This document shows positions 53,282 to 63,394 of a stretch of DNA of 64,000 nucleotides, piece after piece; the first letter of the stretch is position 1; the number at the start of each line of letters is the position of its first letter. The stretch spans positions 18,968 to 82,967 of the forward strand of contig JAEYUC010000051.1 of assembly GCA_023433705.1 (NCBI GenBank), written 5' to 3'. The translations under genes and the position numbers were made by a program. The notes under the pieces are model-generated. The model was not told where the DNA came from. It saw only the letters and a program-made list of their open reading frames with translations, and did no database searches. Origin of the DNA: Pseudomonadota bacterium (GTDB lineage Bacteria > Pseudomonadota > Gammaproteobacteria > Steroidobacterales > Steroidobacteraceae).

Positions 53282-55594
53282 GTGCCGATTTCCGATTCCG
53301 ATCTGGACTTGCCGTTTGCCCGCCGTCGCATTGCCGTAGCCATCAGCCTCGCGCTCGCCGCGGGCGCCGCGCACGCGCAGACCGCCACGGATACGTCGAC
53401 CACTGGAGAGACCAAGACCCTCTCGAAGATTTCCGTCGAGGCCACCGAGGCCGAGGAAACGCCGAAGGTCGATCGTGTGTCGTCGCCCAAGTTCACGCAG
53501 GATCTCATCGACATCCCGCAGACGATCACGGTCGTCAGCAGGGAAGTGCTCACTCAGCAAGGCGCGACCACGCTCTCGCAGGCGCTGCGCAACACGCCCG
53601 GTGTGACGTTCCTGCTGGGCGAGAACGGCAACACCGCGACCGGCGATTCCGTCTTCATGCGCGGCTTCGACACACAAGGCTCCATCTTCATCGACGGCAT
53701 CCGCGACCTGGGCGCGGTGTCGCGCGACGTCTTCAACACGGAGCAGGTGGAAATCGCCAAGGGTCCGGCGGGTCCGGATTACGGCCGCAGCGCCGCGTCC
53801 GGATACATCAACCTCGCCAGCAAGGTTCCGACCGCGGACAGCTTCAACTCGGGCGCCGTGAGTTACGGCACCGCGGAGAATGCGCGCATCACCGGCGACG
53901 TGAATCATCGCTTCGAAGGAACCGGTGCCGCATTCCGCCTCAACGTGATGGCGCAGGACGGCGAAGTCGACGGCCGCGACTTCATCGAGCGCAAGGGCTG
54001 GGCCGTGGCGCCGTCGCTCGCGTTCGGCCTGGAAGGCGACACGCGTGCTTATTTCTATCTACTGCACACGCAGCAGGACAACATTCCGGACGGTGGCGTG
54101 CCGACGATCGGCCTCGAGGGTTTCTACAACGCGGCGTTCGATACCGGTGGCGCACACGCGGGCCTGGTCCCCGATCGCGTGGATCGGAACAACTACTACG
54201 GTTTCACGAGCGACTTCGAGGACATCGAGGCGACGATGTTCACGGCTCGCTTCGAGCACGATTTCAGCGAGAACGTCACGCTGCGCAATACCTCGCGCTA
54301 CGGCAAGCTGAACCAGTTCTACGTGCTCACCGGCGTCAACGCGCTCAACGTGACGGCCGCCGATCCGGACGACTGGACCGTGGCGCGCACGCGGCAGTCC
54401 AGGTTCCAGGACAACACGCTGCTCACCAACCAGACGAACGTGACCGCCAACCTGCAGACCGGAAGCGTGGGCCACGCCATCACGGGCGGTGTCGAGTTCA
54501 TCGACGAAGAGCAGTACACGCCCCTGTATCTCGCCGCGAGCCTTGGCAGTCCCATACCGCCGGCAAACGTGTACAACCCCAACCGCAACGACGTGCTGCC
54601 GGGCTACGCCCCGACGCGCGACGGCCGCTACACGCGTGGCGAGACGCAGACCGTCGGCGCCTATCTGTTCGATACGCTGAGCTTCGGCGAGAAATGGCAG
54701 CTCACGGCCGGCTTCCGCGTGGATGACTTCGAGACCAACGTGGACGGCGTGGTGTTCTCGACGGAGGCCTCGCACCCGACACTGCCCGTGAATACGCTCG
54801 TGCCGCAGAACTTCCAGATCGACGACACGTTGTTCTCATACAAGGTGGGCCTGCTGTACAAGCCCGTGCCGAACGGCAGCATCTATCTGTCGCACGCAAC
54901 GTCGCAGCAGCCGCCGGGCGGAGCCAACTTCACGTTCTCGGCGAACGCGAACAACCAGAACAACCCGGCGCTGGATCCCACCGAGGGCACGAACCTCGAA
55001 CTCGGCGCCAAGTGGGAGTTCCGCGACGGCGCGCTGGCGGTGACCGGCGCCCTCTATGACAGCACCAACAAGGACGAGATCGCGCAGGATCCGGTGGATC
55101 CGACGCAGTTCGTGCAGATCGGCGAGCGCAACGTGAAGGGCATCGAGCTCGGCATCGTCGGCAAGCTCACCGATGCCTGGGAGCTGAGCGCGGGCGTTTC
55201 GAAGATGGACACCGAGGTCAAGCGCGGACTCGCCAACCAGGCCGGCCTGCCGATCACCTGGTCGCCCGAGTTCACGTTCACGAGCTGGACTACCTACCAC
55301 CTGCCGTTCGGGCTTTCGATCGGCGGCGGGGTCCGCTACGTCGACAGCGTGATCCGCCCGGTGAGCGCGAACAACGTGCCGCCGCCGCCCAACCAGACCA
55401 ACATGCGCACCGCGCCCGACTACTGGGTGGTGGACATGATGGCGTCCTATGCCATCAACGACAACGTGACGCTGCAGTTGAACGGCTACAACCTCACGGA
55501 CGAGCTGTACGTGGCCACGCTCAACAACAGCGGCGCCCGCTACTCGCCCGGCGCGCCGCGGTCGGCGCTGCTCACGGTGAATTTCAGCTTCTGA
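53282..55594 (+). CDS. TonB-dependent (catecholate-type, Fiu-like) siderophore receptor
   Basis: 770 aa with a GTG start and a signal peptide. The plug reads ...[32 protein letters not shown]...; the protein ends in ...TVNFSF. A PiuC/YbiX-like gene follows. Confidence 0.88.
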
Positions 55595-55619
55595 GCCCGA
55601 CTGTGCGAGCATCCGGCGC

Positions 55620-56300
55620 ATGCTGATTCGCGTGCCGAACCTGTTGAGCGCCGAGCAGGTGGCGGAGTGCCGCCGCCTGCTCGACGCCGCCGAATGGACG
55701 GACGGCAAGTCGACCGTCGGCGAGCAGGGCGCGCTGGTGAAGCGCAATCGGCAACTTCCCGAACTGTCGCCGGTTTCCCGGCAGCTCGGCGAGCTCATCC
55801 TCACCGCGCTCGCGCGCAATCCGTTGTTCTTTTCCGCCGCGCTGCCGCTCAAGACCGTGCCGCCGCTGTTCAACCGCTACGAGGGCGGCGAGCACTACGG
55901 CATGCACATCGACGGCGCCGTGCGCGCGGTGCCGGGCAGCACGCACTTCATCCGCACGGACCTGTCCTCGACGCTGTTCCTGACGGATCCGGCCGACTAC
56001 GACGGCGGCGAGCTCATCGTCCAGGACACCTACGGCGAGCACTCGGTCAAACTACCCGCCGGCGACCTGATCCTGTACAACTCCGGCAGCCTGCATCGCG
56101 TGAATCCCGTGACCCGCGGCGCCCGCATCTGCTCGTTTTTCTGGACGCAGAGCATGATTCCCGACGATCGCCACCGCGAGCACCTCTTCCGGCTCGACCA
56201 GACCATCCAGAAGCTGCGCGGCAGGATCGGCGAGACCGACGAAACCGTCGCGCTGGCCGGGCACTATCACAACCTGCTCAGGATGTGGTCGGAGATCTGA
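55620..56300 (+). CDS. piuC: Fe(II)/2-oxoglutarate-dependent oxygenase, PiuC/YbiX family
   Basis: 226 aa, [34 protein letters not shown]...[16 protein letters not shown]... Confidence 0.8.
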
Positions 56301-59300
56301 TACTCCACTATCCGTTAATCCGGGATCGGTTCCGCTTAATCCAAGCGTCTATTCTTCCTGCAAGTTAATTGGTTCCCTCTTCAGGAACGGTACCAATAAT
56401 GAATATTTCCGTGACGAACTACTCAGCCACGAGTGTTCGCGTACCCTGGCTGTCTATCTAGGCTAATCAGAAGCGTATTGTCAGATGCAATCGCTAGCAT
56501 CGACAACCAACACGTCAGATTCTGTTCGGAGAGGCCAATGGCGGAGATCGAAGCGCTTCCGTTGCACCTTCATACGCTGGATAGCTTGAGCGACGATCTG
56601 CTGGCTGGGCGGAAGGTGCTGTTCGCGGACTCTGCAGAAACTGGGGAGATCTTCGTCCTTAGTGAGAACGAGAGAAGGGTCTTTTCTTGGTATAGCCAGA
56701 ACCGCGGCAAGTGGGCAAAGAATTGCCTGAAGGAAGATGTGGAAGCCATTGCGGCGACTCTTGGCAACGCTCTGCCAAAAACGCGCGATCGTCAACTTCG
56801 AGACGGACCAAAGCGCGTTCGCCATTTTCATCTCTTGAAGATCCGAGCATTTCGGTTCGGGGGCCTTCATCTATTTGGCAGTGCAATCGCTGACAAGCCG
56901 CCAGTATTTGAGTTTGCATGCTCAAGTCCAATGACTCTTGTGCAGGGTAAGAACGGCTCAGGGAAGACTTCGCTTCTTAACGCCATTACTTGGTGTCTTA
57001 CAGGCCACGTATTTCGGCCCTCAAGCGAGCCAGAACCGGGAGCTGGCCCAATTGAGGTTTCTAATAGCGAATCTGAGGGCCAGACATGGGAACTTGCCGG
57101 TGTTACCCCCCTTCCGCCGCGGGATGCTCTCGCGGGCTTTCCGAGCCGTGGAGTTCCGCTTGATACATGGGTCGAACTGATACTCGGCACTGAGGACGGC
57201 GCCGAGTACGCAGTGAGGCGTGAACTAACGCGAACAGCCAGGGGAAATGTTCAGGAGCAGATTACCGGGCTATCGGAACTCGGCTTGGATCCAATAAGCC
57301 TTGAGCTCGGGACCAAAATGCCCGGGCTGCTTCCATATATTCGGCTTGGAACTCGGCCATCGGAACTCGGAAAAGCTATTGCTCAACTAACTGGGTTAGC
57401 GCCCCTTCGCGATCTATCTAAGCATGCGTCTAAAGCATATGAGAAATTAACAGCAGAACTACCAAAGGAACGCCGCGCCGATATTGCTGTCGTTGAATCG
57501 ACCTACTTAGCTGACCAGAAAAAGCTGGATGACCTGGTAAAGGTTCATCCCTTGATTGCAGAGAAACCAATACTGGTTCCCAAGCCTTCCGATGAGAATG
57601 CAGCATCCCAACTAGATGCGTTGCAGGGCCAACTCGACGGGCTTTGTGCACAACTGCTTGAAGACGTTGAGGGCGTACTGACGACGGATTTCGATCCGTC
57701 GGTCGCAACCGATAGGGCCGCTCTCGCCAATGACTTGCCATTGTGTAGAGCCGCGTGCAGACCAAGCAACCTACTAACTTTGGCCTCGGTCGCGAGAATC
57801 TCGGGTCTCAAGGGACTTGAGGAAAATCAACTTGGAGATGCGGAGAAAGTCATCGCCGAGTTGGAACTGCAGGCAAGTGAGCTGCTCGAACTTGCAAAAG
57901 AACCAAGGGCCGCCTCCCGCACTCGTCTTTACGCATCGGTCGGCTCATGGATGAGAAACGAAAAATTCACCGATTCACGCCATTGCCCGGTCTGTATTGG
58001 TGAGCTTGGTAAAGCAAAGGACCCGATCACAAATGTAGAAATCGAAAAACTCCTTGAAGAACACCGAAATGGCGGCCGGTCGCACCTTTCATTGACTACA
58101 GATCAATGGGTGAATTCGGCGCGTCAACGCCTTAAGGACGCGCTTCCAACGGCGCTGGCAGCTGAGCTGACATCTGCGAAGTTGGTGAATCCAATTTCCC
58201 AAATTTCCGATGAGATGGTTGATGATCTGTTTCGACTGGAATGCTTCTCTGGGCCGCTCAAGAGTCTAAAAGCCAAACTAAAAGATCAGGCGCGAGCACT
58301 TGCCGGTAAGCTGCCATCATTCGAAGTCGATGGAGCAGCAATTCCGCATATCGCGCGCCTCTCGAGTGCTCTCGCGCAGATGATTGAGAAAGTTCGAGCC
58401 GCCATCGCCGCTGCTCGGTGGCGTCGAAAGAACGAGAGAGAGTGCCGAATTTTCTACTTCGGCCTAGTTGGACGAGATAAGCGGCAAGCCACTGAACAGC
58501 AACAGGAGGAAATCGAAAGCCCTACTGAAGGGACATTGCTCGACATTCTCACGGCGCTCGATCGAATCGTTCAATCTGCTGGGCCGGCAGCGGACGCTGC
58601 ATCACTTGTGCGTGCGCTTTCAAAATCACTCAATTCTCGGGCTGCACTCGAATCAAGAATAGAGACATATATCGAGGCTTCGAAAGCCGTGAAGACGTTA
58701 GGAGGACTAGGAACACTAGTTGATCGGCAAATCGAGGGGTTGCAGACTCACCTGCATGAGAAAACTGAACAACTCCGTAACGCTATTTATCAGTCCGCCT
58801 ATTCAAATTCGGCATCGCCCAAACTCAATCGCACTCGGGTGTCAAACGACGGATCTCTCAGCCTAGAAGTCGAGCGGAACGGAACTTGCGCGCCAGCACA
58901 AATCGTTGGAAATGCGTCTGATCTTCGCGCAACTCTCCTCGCGTTCCTATTCTCGTTTTGGTTGCACGTATCGAAGACACGAGGCGGACTTAGTATCTTC
59001 CTGCTTGATGATCCGCAAGAGTTGTTTGATCCAGATAATCGTCGTCGGGTCGCTAACGGAATTCCGCAACTCGTAAAGGAAGGGGCGCGACCTATTGTTG
59101 CCTGCAACGATGACCGATTTTCAGAGAAACTTGGGAGTGCAGACGGATGCGATAGACGTGAAATCAAACCAGCAGGGAAGGTCTGTCCAGTAGCAAGGGT
59201 TTTGCCCCATGAGGTTTCCATAGACAGAAAACGTCACGCCTTCGAATCGCCGGTGAACGAGGAAGATCATTCAATTGCACAAGACTATGTTGGTTCGCTT

Positions 59301-60547
59301 CGAGAGTGGCTGGAAGGACAATTCGCAGACTTCTTTTTGCCATCGGCAAAAATATTCTCGAGTGAACCGACTCTAGGAACATTGATCGATACATTTCGAA
59401 GTCGGGTGATGTCCGGATCGGAGGCGTTTGCCGGGCCGGCCGCCTTGGCGCTTGCAAGATGTTCAGACCTTCTTGCGTCGTCATCGACGTATGAGCTCTT
59501 GAATAGGGCGCACCATCGCGATCGGGCAACAATTACTGCCGGAGAAGTTCGGGCGGTCGACGGTCAGCTTAGGCATATACAGAATCTAGTTAGCCGAGCA
59601 CACGAAGAGCTGGAACTGTGGCTAAGTCGAGACCTAAACGCGCGTGGATCGGGACCTGCGCTCAGACAGACCTTGTCAGGAGAATTCAAGTCTAGGCCAT
59701 TTATTGTTCCCATAGTTCGCGACCTAGCAGCGTTTACCACAAGGACAATTGAGCACGACCCGCAGCTTGAAGAGGTTCCATTAACCGATGGTTGGTTCCG
59801 TGGAACAGGCCTCTTCCAGCTGGGTAGCAACAATTTCGGCTTCAGCGCCCCGAAACACAGCATTGCAATCGTTGAGCTGGAACCGAAGGAAATCCTTGAT
59901 AGTCGCCTTGTCATCGCGTTGGTTGATGGGAAGGTGTATGCACGCCGGCACATCCAAGATCAAAAGAATCCAAAGATGATCGCGCTAATCTCAGAGGCTG
60001 AGAATCCGCTGGAACGCGCGCCATCCATAGTTATACCTGCGCAGCAAGCACAGCTGCATAAGGTGGTTGGCATCCTCTTTGAAGATCGTGCGCCAGCCGT
60101 GCGAATAAAGGGCGATGCAGCTCAAATTCAACATTCGTCATTGTTGGATTCTGTGGAGGTTGCCTTCAAGGTTAGACAAGACAGCGCCCTTCCGTTGGCA
60201 ATTGAGGGACAGTTGGTCATTGGAGGTCGGCGCGTCGAGCCGCGCGAGATTTCGAACGCAGTAGGAAAGGTTGTTGCGGTGGCAACTACCGATGGCCAAC
60301 ATGCGCTAAAGCGCCTTGGCGACGAAGTCCCCGGTCTGGCGGGTGTGCACTACTTCGATTCAATTGGTGGGAAAGGTAATTCCCTGATTGCGCGAATTGC
60401 ACAATCGCCGCGGGTGGAGGAAGAGCGCCTAGCTATTCCCAAAATCGAATCGCTACGCATTATCCTCGGTGTGCTTTACGTTACAAGCTCCTGATATGCT
60501 TGACTCCCGAGTGCTGGGGCGCGGAAAACGGGTGTCAAAAGGCGCAG
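56301..60547. other. low-GC genomic island carrying a single giant ORF (no integrase, tRNA or IS visible)
   Basis: Hand counts of sampled 60-nt lines give 29/60 (line 57421) and 31/60 (line 58681) GC inside. Flanking lines give 45/60 (line 55501) and 41/60 (line 61021). Codon usage also shifts abruptly toward A/T-ending codons. Confidence 0.8.
56538..60494 (+). CDS. 1318-aa SMC/Rad50-like ABC ATPase with a CxxC hook, PrrC/RloC-like motifs and two C-terminal LexA/S24-like modules (hypothetical; candidate defence protein)
   Basis: The ATG at 56538 follows GGAGAGG. Walker A is GKNGSGKTS (56946-56972). A helical insert of roughly 600 aa contains CPVC (57984-57995). Walker B and downstream read SIFLLDDPQELFDPDN...PIVACNDDRF. 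LREWLE...LLNRAHH follows. The C-terminal modules are ...LVIALVDGKVYARRH... and ...VRQDSALPLAIEGQLVIGG...GQHALKRLG... Confidence 0.85.
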   Translation: MAEIEALPLHLHTLDSLSDDLLAGRKVLFADSAETGEIFVLSENERRVFSWYSQNRGKWAKNCLKEDVEAIAATLGNALPKTRDRQLRDGPKRVRHFHLLKIRAFRFGGLHLFGSAIADKPPVFEFACSSPMTLVQGKNGSGKTSLLNAITWCLTGHVFRPSSEPEPGAGPIEVSNSESEGQTWELAGVTPLPPRDALAGFPSRGVPLDTWVELILGTEDGAEYAVRRELTRTARGNVQEQITGLSELGLDPISLELGTKMPGLLPYIRLGTRPSELGKAIAQLTGLAPLRDLSKHASKAYEKLTAELPKERRADIAVVESTYLADQKKLDDLVKVHPLIAEKPILVPKPSDENAASQLDALQGQLDGLCAQLLEDVEGVLTTDFDPSVATDRAALANDLPLCRAACRPSNLLTLASVARISGLKGLEENQLGDAEKVIAELELQASELLELAKEPRAASRTRLYASVGSWMRNEKFTDSRHCPVCIGELGKAKDPITNVEIEKLLEEHRNGGRSHLSLTTDQWVNSARQRLKDALPTALAAELTSAKLVNPISQISDEMVDDLFRLECFSGPLKSLKAKLKDQARALAGKLPSFEVDGAAIPHIARLSSALAQMIEKVRAAIAAARWRRKNERECRIFYFGLVGRDKRQATEQQQEEIESPTEGTLLDILTALDRIVQSAGPAADAASLVRALSKSLNSRAALESRIETYIEASKAVKTLGGLGTLVDRQIEGLQTHLHEKTEQLRNAIYQSAYSNSASPKLNRTRVSNDGSLSLEVERNGTCAPAQIVGNASDLRATLLAFLFSFWLHVSKTRGGLSIFLLDDPQELFDPDNRRRVANGIPQLVKEGARPIVACNDDRFSEKLGSADGCDRREIKPAGKVCPVARVLPHEVSIDRKRHAFESPVNEEDHSIAQDYVGSLREWLEGQFADFFLPSAKIFSSEPTLGTLIDTFRSRVMSGSEAFAGPAALALARCSDLLASSSTYELLNRAHHRDRATITAGEVRAVDGQLRHIQNLVSRAHEELELWLSRDLNARGSGPALRQTLSGEFKSRPFIVPIVRDLAAFTTRTIEHDPQLEEVPLTDGWFRGTGLFQLGSNNFGFSAPKHSIAIVELEPKEILDSRLVIALVDGKVYARRHIQDQKNPKMIALISEAENPLERAPSIVIPAQQAQLHKVVGILFEDRAPAVRIKGDAAQIQHSSLLDSVEVAFKVRQDSALPLAIEGQLVIGGRRVEPREISNAVGKVVAVATTDGQHALKRLGDEVPGLAGVHYFDSIGGKGNSLIARIAQSPRVEEERLAIPKIESLRIILGVLYVTSS

Positions 60548-61696
60548 CTAGTCGTTCGAGCTTGAAGTCCCAGGCCGCACCGCCGGCAGCACGTGGCGAG
60601 TCAGGATATCGAACGGCAGGTCGGACGCCCGCGAGTTGTAGTTCGACGCGGTGAACGTCACGACGAGATCGAGCGCGGGAATCACGAAGATGTAGTTCCC
60701 GCCGTTGCCGGACGTGAAGAAACTCTCGACCGTGACTTCGGTGTGATGCGGGAACGAACGCTTCCACCACAGGAACCCATAACCATCGGAGCCCAGCCTG
60801 TTCACGGGCAACGCAGATTCGGCCACCCACGCGGCCGGGACCACCTGTGTTCCATTCCACTCGCCACCGGCCAGGTAAAGTTGCCCGAGCTTCGCGGCAT
60901 CGCGGGGCTTGAGCCGCAGGCCGCCGCCGCCGGTGGCGCGCCCGTCGGGCGACCGGCGCCAGATCGATTCGCGGATGCCGAGCGGATCGAATAGATAGGC
61001 CTGGGCGTAGGCGTCGAGCTCCATCCCGGACCGCAGCGATACGATGTGCCCGAGCAGGACGACGCCGCCGGTGCAGTACTGCGGCACGGAACCGGGCGTG
61101 AAAGGCGCAGGAAGGTCGAGCACGAAGCGGATCCAGTCCCTCGAGTCGTACATCCGCTCTTCCTGCCCCGGCGAGTTCGCCACCCAGTCATCACACGCGA
61201 GCCCGGAGCTCATGTTGAGCAGGTGGCGGATCGTGATCTCGCGTTTGCGGTCGCTCATGTTCTCGTGCCCGTCAAAGTTCGGGATGTGCCGGGACGCCGT
61301 GTCGTCCACGCCCAGCAGGCCCTGATCGATGGCGATCCCGACCAGCGCCGACGTGAAGCTCTTGCCCGTCGAACGCAGGTCGTGCAGCGAGTCGCGGCCG
61401 AAGCCGTTGAAATAGCCCTCCGCGACCAGGCGTCCGTGGCGCGCCACGACCATGGAATCCACGCGCCGATACTCGCCATCGCGGATACGGTTGAGGGCGG
61501 CGGACAGGGCGGCCGCATCGATGTCCTCGGCGACCGCGGTCGAGACGGTCCAGCCGTCACCGGTGTCCTCGGGCGTGATCGAAACCAGCGGCGGCAGGCC
61601 TGGATTCACATCGCGCGGCGGGTCGCTGCCGTCGTCTCCGAAGCGGCAAGCGGTGAGCAGCAGGGACAGGACGAGGACGAAAACCTTGTGACGCAT
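60548..61696 (-). CDS. serine hydrolase (beta-lactamase/PBP4-like family) lipoprotein
   Basis: Start at the internal Met (61696), MRHKVFVLVLSLLLTAC (lipobox). The SxxK motif is LRSTGKSF. Confidence 0.75.
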   Translation of the reverse strand: MRHKVFVLVLSLLLTACRFGDDGSDPPRDVNPGLPPLVSITPEDTGDGWTVSTAVAEDIDAAALSAALNRIRDGEYRRVDSMVVARHGRLVAEGYFNGFGRDSLHDLRSTGKSFTSALVGIAIDQGLLGVDDTASRHIPNFDGHENMSDRKREITIRHLLNMSSGLACDDWVANSPGQEERMYDSRDWIRFVLDLPAPFTPGSVPQYCTGGVVLLGHIVSLRSGMELDAYAQAYLFDPLGIRESIWRRSPDGRATGGGGLRLKPRDAAKLGQLYLAGGEWNGTQVVPAAWVAESALPVNRLGSDGYGFLWWKRSFPHHTEVTVESFFTSGNGGNYIFVIPALDLVVTFTASNYNSRASDLPFDILTRHVLPAVRPGTSSSND

Positions 61697-61811
61697 CGCG
61701 ACTCCACTTGCCTGTAGATGGACGAGAGTGGGTGGCCGACCGCGGCCGGAATCCTTCGCGGCGAGGATTCCCGCGAAGGATTCGGGTTGGCGGGGCACAC
61801 TAACCGCCCTG

Positions 61812-62414
61812 ATGAACGTCGCGGACCGCCAACTCGTCGACCGATTGCTGCAGGGCGACCGCGCGGCTTTCGACTCGTTCTTCAACGAGTACTACCCCAA
61901 GCTTTTCCGCTTCGTGAAACGCCGCATGCCGAACGACGTGGCGGCCGCGGAAGACGTGGCCCAGGCGACGTTGTGCCGCGCGCTCGAGAGCCTGCACGGC
62001 TACCGCGGCGAAGCGGCATTGTTCACCTGGCTCTGCACTTTGTGCCGGCGGGAGATGAGCGCGCGCTGGCAGGAAGCCCGCCAATGGAGCTCCGCGCCGC
62101 CGCTGGCCGAGGACGACCCGGCCGTGCGCGCGGCGCTCGAATCGTTGCTGGGCGAGCAGGCGGACCCCGTGAGCGCCGCCGATCGCGAGCAGGTGCGCGA
62201 GTCCATCAGGACGGCGCTCGACTATCTACCCGCTCCGTACGGCGACATCCTCGAGTGGAAATACCTGCGCGATCTCAGCATGGAGGAGATCGCGCGCCGG
62301 CTCGGCCGCTCGCCGAAAGCCGTCGAGTCGCTGCTCACGCGCGCCCGCGACGCCTTTCGCGAAACCTTCGCGATGTTGTCCGGCGGCGCGGCCGGCAAGG
62401 CGGTCTTGCCATGA
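61812..62414 (+). CDS. ECF-type RNA polymerase sigma-70 factor
   Basis: MNVADRQLVDRLLQGDRAAFDSFFNEYYPKLFRFVKRR... is region 2 and ...EWKYLRDLSMEEIARRLGRSPKAVESLLTRAR is region 4. Confidence 0.85.
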   Translation: MNVADRQLVDRLLQGDRAAFDSFFNEYYPKLFRFVKRRMPNDVAAAEDVAQATLCRALESLHGYRGEAALFTWLCTLCRREMSARWQEARQWSSAPPLAEDDPAVRAALESLLGEQADPVSAADREQVRESIRTALDYLPAPYGDILEWKYLRDLSMEEIARRLGRSPKAVESLLTRARDAFRETFAMLSGGAAGKAVLP

Positions 62415-63394
62415 GCTCACGGCACGAACGCTCCATCGAGGATCTGATTCGTCTCGGCGGCGAACGGGAGATGCCTTCCGCCGAAGGCATGGAACGCGCG
62501 CGCGCGGCGGCCGAAGAATCCTGGCGCCGGGGCTTCGAGCAGAGGTCGAAGTCATCCGGTTTCCGCTGGCGCATCCCGCTTGGGCTCGCCGCGGCTGCGG
62601 GAGCCAGCGCGCTCGCGCTGTGGCTCGGATTCACGCGAGCGCCGTCGTCCCCGTCGGTGACGGTTGCGCGCATCGTTGCCTTGCAAGGCGTGGCCGGCAT
62701 CGAGCACGGCAACCACGCTGCGCCCGCGGGAAAAGATTCCGTCGTGCCTTCGGGCGCGACACTGACGACGGCGAACGGACGCGTCGCGACCGCGCTCATC
62801 GACGGCGTTTCGCTGCGCCTCGATCGCGATTCACGAGTGCGCTTCGACGACGCCGATCGCGTGACCCTGATCGCGGGCACGGTGTACGTCGATTCGGGCG
62901 GCATCAACACGGGATCGGGACTCGTCATCGAGACGCCTGCCGGCGGCGTGGCTCACGTCGGTACGCAATTCCTGGTTTCGGTCGGCGGCGACGCGACGCG
63001 AGTGCGTGTGCGGGAAGGCCGCGTGTTGCTCGCGAACGCGGCCATCGCCGCGGGCGAAGAGCTCGAGGTGCGCGACGGCGCGCAGACCTGGCGACGCGGG
63101 CTGCCGTCGTTCGGAGCACCCTGGGAAGAATTCACCCACGTGGCGCCGACGCTCGACATCGAAGGCCGGCCGCTCGCGGAATTCCTCGCGTGGCTGGCGC
63201 GCGAGCACGGCTGGCGGCTGCGTTATTCGAGCGATGCGCTCCAGCAGCGGACACACGAGATCCGCCTGCACGGCTCCGTCGATGGCCTCGACACCGCGGC
63301 GATGCTGGAGCGGATGACGCTGGTGACCGGCCTCGTGATCGAGGCGCGAGACGGCGTGTTGTTCGTGGGCGAAAACGGGGGACCGGTGCGATGA
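62411..63394 (+). CDS. FecR-family anti-sigma factor / transmembrane sensor
   Basis: The ATG overlaps the sigma factor stop (ATGA). There is a single TM segment (RIPLGLAAAAGASALALWLGF). The periplasmic FecR domain reads ...RVTLIAGTVYVDS...VGTQFLV... Confidence 0.8.
   Translation: MSSRHERSIEDLIRLGGEREMPSAEGMERARAAAEESWRRGFEQRSKSSGFRWRIPLGLAAAAGASALALWLGFTRAPSSPSVTVARIVALQGVAGIEHGNHAAPAGKDSVVPSGATLTTANGRVATALIDGVSLRLDRDSRVRFDDADRVTLIAGTVYVDSGGINTGSGLVIETPAGGVAHVGTQFLVSVGGDATRVRVREGRVLLANAAIAAGEELEVRDGAQTWRRGLPSFGAPWEEFTHVAPTLDIEGRPLAEFLAWLAREHGWRLRYSSDALQQRTHEIRLHGSVDGLDTAAMLERMTLVTGLVIEARDGVLFVGENGGPVR

Follow-up and report, generated by a model that had tools for sequence, protein, structure and literature searches.

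A Rad50/LmuB-like ATPase ending in a tandem of LexA-like domains, with an invariant serine and lysine in the second domain

S24 autopeptidases are known to serve as switches in the repressors LexA and phage cI and in UmuD. Cleavage by UmuD2 is intermolecular, lambda cI and 186 CI assemble cooperatively through their C-terminal domains (CTDs), and the S24/S26 hallmark boxes are G-D-S-M-x-P-T-[LI] and h-V-K-R-L. In Lamassu, Wadjet and RloC, the known sensors are ATPases of the SMC/Rad50 type. A CxxC hook has been described for Rad50, RloC and LmuB (PMC2610378; bioRxiv 10.1101/2025.03.14.643221), and LmuB, a Rad50-like protein, combines its zinc hook with a Walker B in which E is changed to Q (bioRxiv 10.1101/2025.03.14.643221). 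In RloC and PrrC, a Rad50-like ATPase with a CxxC hook is followed by the anticodon-nuclease triad R-x3-E-x36-52-H, often with Ser before the His (PMC2610378), and anticodon nucleases of this type are classed as HEPN (PMC3710099). In this study, we analysed a 64,000-nucleotide stretch of contig JAEYUC010000051.1 from a Steroidobacteraceae bacterium (hereafter the window) and describe a gene at 56538-60494 on its forward strand, which encodes a stand-alone 1318-residue Rad50/LmuB-like ABC ATPase that ends in two LexA-like domains in tandem. No paper joining S24 domains to SMC/ABC ATPases was found, although the ABC-ATPase classification of Krishnan et al. 2020, which lay outside our search, could contain the family. 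The architecture appears to be undescribed.

This architecture is real and surprising. An earlier note, made from the DNA letters alone, had proposed two tandem LexA/UmuD-type modules at the C-terminus, only the second keeping the Ser/Lys dyad. With modest confidence, we favour a reading in which a Rad50/LmuB-like sensor carries a fused pair of S24 domains, one live and one dead, that acts as a self-cleaving switch. The C-terminus would then consist of two LexA/UmuD-type domains of the S24 fold, fused into a pseudo-dimer, with a predicted working dyad in module 2, and proteolysis by module 2, to which a motif and a weak fold match point, would be the key step. Among the differences from LexA, UmuD and cI are that one chain here holds both domains, one dead and one apparently live, that no helix-turn-helix is present, and that the domains are joined to a 1040-residue ATPase.

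The open reading frame extends from 56433, or from the ATG at 56538, to 60494 on the forward strand. Translation from the ATG at 56538 gives a product of 1318 amino acids that is identical to database protein P0001. The homologues share this start, and GGAGAGG sits 5 nucleotides 5' of it. The translation of 59796-60482 on the same strand is the sequence that the earlier note had quoted. Numbered from this ATG, the codons at 60183-60185 and 60309-60311 encode S1216 and K1258, and the positions given earlier for the Ser and the Lys were thereby verified.

A protein search over 5.8 billion sequences returned a family of about 1300 residues that aligned end to end with the window protein at 33-47% identity. 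From the matches listed, we aligned 120 full-length homologues within this identity range using MAFFT. We also used a wider set, in which cluster representatives at 50% identity were added to the 120 homologues and counts were made only where a column was covered, and a diverse 39-sequence alignment of the C-terminus (279 positions, residues 1040-1318). The results showed that S1216 and K1258 were each present in 120 of the 120 homologues and R1259 in 118. In the wider set, Ser1216 was found in 234/234 sequences, P1219 in 234/234 and Lys1258 in 259/259, in line with the claim that module 2 keeps the dyad. Both residues were also kept in plasmid homologues at 25-27% identity. Only 17 of the 279 positions were invariant in the diverse alignment, so that the chance of two preselected positions both being invariant under random placement is about 0.004. 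Because the earlier note chose both positions from a single sequence, their invariance is a genuine prediction borne out. The family is small, with 216 matches at E<=0.001 among 1.84 billion representatives at 50% identity. Its members are named merely "AAA family ATPase", "ATP-binding protein" or "hypothetical" in the sources, and Peptidase_S24 (PF00717) is absent from the precomputed Pfam annotation of all 120 listed homologues.

We then modelled residues 1040-1318 with AlphaFold2 using the 39-sequence alignment. The model was confident (predicted local distance difference test (pLDDT) 89, predicted template modelling score 0.88), and DSSP assigned to each module an arm strand, a short helix and seven strands in the same order, which upheld the proposal of two tandem modules. 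Module 2 differs from module 1 in having a longer final loop and, after strand 2, an additional helix that precedes strand 3. The two domains pack together, as S24 domains do when they dimerise. S1216 lies three residues past the first core strand, and the fourth core strand has K1258 as its fifth residue; we take these positions to be those of S119 and K156 in the LexA structure. When the tandem model was searched with Foldseek, the top 26 PDB matches were the CTDs of LexA (Thermotoga maritima, Escherichia coli, Pseudomonas aeruginosa and Mycobacterium tuberculosis), lambda cI, UmuD' and 186 CI, with a probability of >=0.98 (mostly 1.00) and a best E of 1.9e-4. In the Foldseek viral library, phage CI/LexA-like repressors were the top matches. 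The comparison with the LexA CTD thus favoured the earlier proposal for the tandem, whereas module 2 modelled alone matched only weakly (E 0.044), as detailed below. We also considered a duplication as the origin of the tandem; when the two modules were compared by hhalign, only their last strands aligned (VVGILF with ILGVLY; P 0.02-0.035), with no change on adding DSSP strings, so duplication was not demonstrated, and no DNA-level repeat was found between the two modules.

Module 1 (59796-60083, forward strand) is S24-like. Pfam Peptidase_S24 matched residues 1098-1168 of the window protein, that is, module 1, at E 0.006 and 16.8 bits, below the gathering cut-off of 23.3 bits. Scanned singly, 23 of the 39 diverse relatives matched (best 2.2e-6), and in L012p, a 25%-identical plasmid homologue, the match in module 1 reached 27.3 bits, above the cut-off. 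Comparison of the module 1 profile with LexA, UmuD, cI and a prophage repressor (L007) by hhalign gave P=3.4e-4; the alignment spanned 94 columns and kept the expected register. At the K-R position of this module, R1136 and R1137 were both present in 120 of 120 homologues. Alignment of F-A-A-P on S-A-V-P places F1102 (117/120) at the nucleophile position, where no conserved Ser was found in the 120 homologues or the wider set, F1102 or G1101 standing there instead. These counts agree with the earlier description of module 1 as having no Ser in register and an Arg for the Lys. Judged by its sequence, module 1 is a pseudo-protease whose catalytic residues have been lost (Ser to Phe, Lys to Arg). 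In the homologue at L012:6887-10876 (Pseudomonas veronii IncP plasmid NZ_CP089533.1), the module 1 Ser is in register (HGDSLG) and an Arg replaces the Lys (FARRY).

Module 2 (60129-60482, forward strand) is a divergent beta domain that carries the invariant S1216 and K1258. In the 120 homologues its motif reads [DE]-[DE]-S-A-V-P-L-A-L-x-x-Q ... F-K-R-V-G. When the most divergent members are included, the Ser box is G-[DE]-S-A-x-P-[LIV]-[AV]-L, with VGDSAFPVAL, TGDSARPVAL and GESALPLAL as examples, and the Lys box is h-h-K-R-h-G. The canonical-looking box VGDSAFPVAL belongs to the homologue at L013:6932-10894 (Mesorhizobium plasmid NZ_CP080523.1). Ser and Lys are separated by 42 residues, compared with 37 in LexA and UmuD and 43 in cI, the reference sequences having been checked by phmmer and a large protein search, which gave only near-identical LexA and UmuD from enterobacteria. 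The G-D/E-S-x-x-P and K-R boxes, their spacing and their strand positions are thus shared with LexA, UmuD and cI. The best local alignment from hhalign, which was not significant, set S1216 on LexA S119 and K1258 on K156 simultaneously. Modelled alone (pLDDT 85.6), module 2 had as its best PDB match the lambda cI CTD 1kca_A (E 0.044, probability 0.99, template modelling (TM) score 0.55), and 2ho0 also matched with a probability of 0.99. Together with the strand order like that of module 1 and the tandem position, this motif, spacing and weak fold match suggest that module 2 is probably an S24-type domain that has diverged very far and has kept its dyad.

Upstream of module 1, we identified an arm resembling the cleavage-site region of LexA (59706-59738, forward strand), which reads V-P-I-V-R-D-L-A1064-A1065-F1066-T and contains a candidate scissile bond, A1065|F1066. 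In the family, the arm motif V-x-I-x-P-D-L-A1064-A1065-F1066-T is conserved, with A1065 in 197/198 and A1064 in 187/196 sequences of the wider set; it forms a beta strand in the model. Its P3-P1 pattern, h-A-A, agrees with the V-A-A of LexA, and A1065 lies 37 residues before F1102, at the canonical distance: the scissile Ala/Cys lies 35-38 residues before the Ser in LexA, UmuD and cI. The residue after A1065 is variable, being F, A, L, S or C in the HMM (hidden Markov model) alignment and Y, H, K or R in divergent members. In L013p, the divergent relative on the Mesorhizobium plasmid NZ_CP080523.1, the arm reads VVGRLAARAAGAPL, which is close to LVGRVAAGEPL of LexA, and one relative bears a LexA-like VGRLAARAAGAPL arm in which AAG is present. 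A search for an Ala-Gly/Cys-Gly-like site in residues 1040-1215, as suggested earlier, therefore yielded a conserved h-A-A-x at 1063-1066 but no canonical Ala-Gly. Because module 1 cannot cut, this arm would need to be cut by module 2, either in the same chain or by the partner chain of an ATPase dimer. The linker between the modules (60084-60128, forward strand) offers a second candidate cleavage site, A1194|V/A. Here the wider set contains E1193 in 210/222 and A1194 in 216/222 sequences (E1193-A1194, 60114-60119), 22 residues before S1216 and, in the model, at the start of the strand leading into module 2. By inference, E1193-A1194 would parallel A1065 of module 1 as a candidate cleavage site.

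Several results weigh against a self-cleaving switch. The detectable S24 sequence signal falls in module 1 and not in the dyad-bearing module 2. PF00717 matched module 2 alone in 0 of 39 relatives even at E<=10, so that alignment to the Peptidase_S24 HMM, proposed in the earlier note, gave matches for module 1 only. Likewise, a PHROGs scan of module 2 gave no S24 matches, profile searches of PDB sequences with the tandem and with module 2 gave none at all, and hhalign of module 2 against S24 gave P=0.22-0.32. HMMER profiles built from four S24 sequences, or from S24 and module 1, scored module 2 in both directions no better than shuffled or reversed decoys. In the structural comparison of module 2 alone, no Foldseek match fell below E 1e-3, TM scores were 0.45-0.55, and RimP and Sm/Hfq barrels followed closely behind. 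The window protein has no canonical Ala-Gly or Cys-Gly bond, the P1' residue at the arm being Phe, and inspection by eye of the 240 nucleotides upstream revealed neither a LexA box nor any other link to SOS. No effector domain was identified either, and the middle region (870-1050) had no Pfam or PADLOC match. The parallel with the S24 pattern drawn earlier for module 2 thus stands in its Ser and Lys boxes and their spacing, but it has no statistically supported sequence homology behind it, and module 2 is too diverged for HMM detection. Searches for intermediates gave a similar picture: the module 2 profile had 216 matches among the 1.84 billion representatives, the 150 listed being all family members or fragments with no bridging sequences, and a LexA scan of viral contigs, meant to supply a diverse S24 profile, found nothing. 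However, even genuine LexA and lambda cI do no better than E 0.058 when compared with phmmer, and the missing sequence signal of module 2 is therefore weak evidence against homology.

The explanation that best survives beside a self-cleaving switch is that the tandem is a non-catalytic S24-derived (or SH3/Sm-like) beta module for oligomerisation, autoinhibition or ligand binding, with module 2 using its invariant Ser, Lys, Arg and Gly-rich loop to bind a ligand or to form a partner surface. The lack of HMM-level similarity between module 2 and S24, its weak fold match shared with RimP and Sm barrels, the absence of a canonical Ala-Gly site and the presence of the 186 CI CTD among the tandem fold matches all suit this explanation. 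Moreover, conservation in the tandem needs no catalysis, because the non-catalytic module 1 also has invariant residues (G1101, F1102, R1136 and R1137). On the other hand, the conserved residues of module 2 are the S24/S26 hallmarks G-[DE]-S-A-x-P and K-R at the correct spacing and secondary-structure positions, Ser and Lys occur without exception in >230 sequences, and the substrate-like h-A-A-x arm is conserved too. On this balance, we regard a non-catalytic tandem as a serious but unlikely alternative to the self-cleaving switch.

The ATPase part was examined for its closest relatives. Outside the tandem, Pfam found in the whole protein only AAA_23 (2e-11) and SMC_N, both at the Walker A, G137-x-N-G-x-G-K-T-S145 (56946-56972, forward strand), which is invariant in the family. 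The full-length profile against the PDB showed that Rad50 heads are the best solved relatives of both lobes (121-158 and 801-860; 4.5e-9). Midway between the two lobes, at the predicted coiled-coil apex and at the position of the zinc hook in Rad50, RloC and LmuB, lies a zinc-hook-like motif, C483-x-x-C486 (57984-57995, forward strand), with both Cys in 120/120 homologues. The C-terminal lobe (58911-59030, forward strand) has invariant columns at a signature-like N792-x-S794-x-L-R-A, a Walker B LLLD824-D825 and a D-loop D831. In this Walker B, LLLDD-P (D824-D825, 59007-59012), an invariant Asp stands in place of the catalytic Glu, which suggests from the motif a slow or switch-like ATPase. Rad50/SbcC therefore resembles the protein in being the best solved-structure sequence match for both lobes and in its coiled coil with a CxxC hook. 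In contrast to Rad50/SbcC, the family has an extra 420 C-terminal residues and a patchy, horizontally transferred distribution, and no adjacent Mre11/SbcD gene was present in any of 11 genomic contexts (the window and 10 other loci). At locus L013, a "DNA repair exonuclease" gene lies about 7 kb upstream of the homologue, beyond a DUF3320 gene and not adjacent.

The best PADLOC match was the model of LmuB, the Lamassu SMC protein (PDLC03859; 1.5e-14 over 293-842), which covers the coiled coil and C-lobe. LmuB of LmuACB/DdmABC also shares the Rad50-like heads, the CxxC hook and a non-canonical Walker B, and relatives of the window gene occur in mobile or defence-island settings. Unlike Lamassu, no LmuA or LmuC gene was found beside a family member in any of the 11 contexts; the Walker B is D-D here and D-Q in LmuB; and a C-terminal extension of about 420 residues (middle domain and tandem S24) is fused here, where Lamassu has a separate effector.

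The middle domain (residues ~900-1040; 59235-59657, forward strand) contains invariant R922-x3-E926, D931 and N989-K-[A/S]-H992-H993. The window family and RloC/PrrC have in common a single polypeptide with a Rad50-like ABC ATPase, a CxxC hook and a C-terminal helical region bearing R-x3-E ... [A/S]-H (PMC2610378, PMC3710099); both this gene and RloC are stand-alone, and RloC has been proposed to respond to DNA damage. Unlike in RloC/PrrC, the middle region here had no Pfam AAA_13 or PADLOC PrrC-type match. The pattern R922-x3-E926-x65-[A/S]-H992-H993 (59301-59516) has a 65-residue spacing, outside the published 36-52, and lacks an Arg 4-6 residues before the His (R-x4-6-H), and RloC has no S24 domains. 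The likeness to the RloC/PrrC nuclease triad may point to a hidden effector in the middle domain and is a lead only.

A different role for module 2 would be that of an active protease on another protein, from phage, plasmid or host. On this view, the Rad50-like part would be the sensor of a protease that itself acts as effector, with the module 1 arm serving as a blocking pseudosubstrate until activation. Proteases can occur among the effectors of the Lamassu family (bioRxiv 10.1101/2022.05.11.491447). The 1318 residues showed no other recognisable effector domain, and the variable P1' after A-A is unusual for an obligatory cleavage site and suits an inhibitory pseudosubstrate. To our knowledge, however, the characterised S24 peptidases cut themselves or their dimer partner, which weighs against such a protease. 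The middle domain with its invariant R-x3-E...H-H is itself a candidate effector, and the present analysis identified no target. Taken together, we consider proteolysis of another protein improbable.

We next compared the genomic settings. In the window, the ATPase gene forms a low-GC island (56300-60550) with a GC content of 0.52-0.55, against 0.63-0.70 in the flanks, and is the only gene in it. The gene is horizontally acquired. In the stretch examined, no direct or inverted repeats flank the gene to mark an insertion, and no tRNA or integrase was found. The island's neighbours are a TonB-dependent receptor and a 2-oxoglutarate (2OG)-Fe(II) oxygenase on one side and a beta-lactamase-family gene on the other. 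The flanks at 53282-56300 and 61728-63394 resemble an iron-uptake regulon, with a TonB-dependent receptor, a PiuC-like 2OG-Fe(II) oxygenase, an extracytoplasmic function (ECF) sigma factor and a FecR-like protein. These flanking genes are ordinary and unconnected with the ATPase finding.

No neighbouring gene was conserved across the 11 contexts. Known or candidate defence genes adjoined the homologue in 5 of them, and mobile-element genes likewise in 5. The contexts included transposases with brxA/B/C; TerB_N/TerB_C with a BrxC/BrxD-type ATPase and a DEAD helicase; resolvase and Fic; a prophage remnant; and umuD/C. On the P. veronii IncP conjugative plasmid (L012), the gene follows a SLATT and reverse-transcriptase pair and an integrase, and on the Mesorhizobium plasmid (L013) it lies among DUF3320 protein, DarT-like/macro, RES and kinase genes; the remaining contexts were plain chromosomal settings. 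By tblastn, the family was found on 25 plasmids (11 conjugative and 8 mobilizable), and no homologue was found in 50,697 phage records. This setting fits a stand-alone mobile defence-type gene, and the ATPase is probably a DNA-sensing protein with a defensive role.

Two single loci deserve mention. At L001:1278-1715, the UmuD-like S24 protein beside umuC seems to lack the dyad Lys, having ...RLVVVDL... where UmuD has FTVKKL. In Variovorax (L005:11949-12542), a gene of the LigT/2',5'-RNA-ligase family (2H phosphoesterase) starts 19 nucleotides past the homologue's stop; this single case would matter only if the output of the family were an RNase.

It is very improbable that the S24 likeness of module 2 is coincidental and that we are dealing with a DNA-repair Rad50/RecN-like protein with an unrelated C-terminal beta-sandwich: the null sequence statistics of module 2 against S24 and the one homologue adjoining umuDC would suit such a protein, but an S24-like module 1 lies directly upstream and its order of elements recurs in module 2, an S24 domain remains the best fold match even for module 2, and the patchy, plasmid-borne distribution and the low-GC single-gene island speak against a housekeeping repair gene.

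Under the self-cleaving switch that we favour, the dead module 1 would still carry a LexA-like h-A-A-x substrate arm, and S1216/K1258 of module 2 would cut the polypeptide at A1065|F1066 or at the linker bond A1194|V1195, acting on its own chain or, as in UmuD2, on the partner chain of the dimer. The trigger may be DNA ends, or engagement of the Rad50-like heads that depends on ATP and DNA; RecA filaments might act alongside this or in its place. The self-cut would be an irreversible switch, and downstream it might activate the conserved middle domain (R-x3-E...H-H). The analysis showed the architecture, its conservation, the S24 character of module 1 and the mobile or defence-island setting; from these we infer that module 2 is catalytic, where it cuts, what triggers it and what follows. 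The fullest version is that of a single-gene immune or damage sensor, in which a DNA-end sensor would be coupled to the live S24 domain and to a dead partner presenting the substrate arm. Engaged heads, or RecA filaments formed on damaged or invading DNA, would then lead to an irreversible self-cut that frees an RloC-like RNase in the middle domain; we put this forward as a speculative and rather doubtful scenario.

If the self-cleaving switch is correct, the fusion of S24 to a Rad50-like ATPase, especially with its live and dead S24 pair, would represent a new route from DNA sensing to an irreversible signal at the protein level, and it would tie SOS-type chemistry to defence or anti-plasmid functions.

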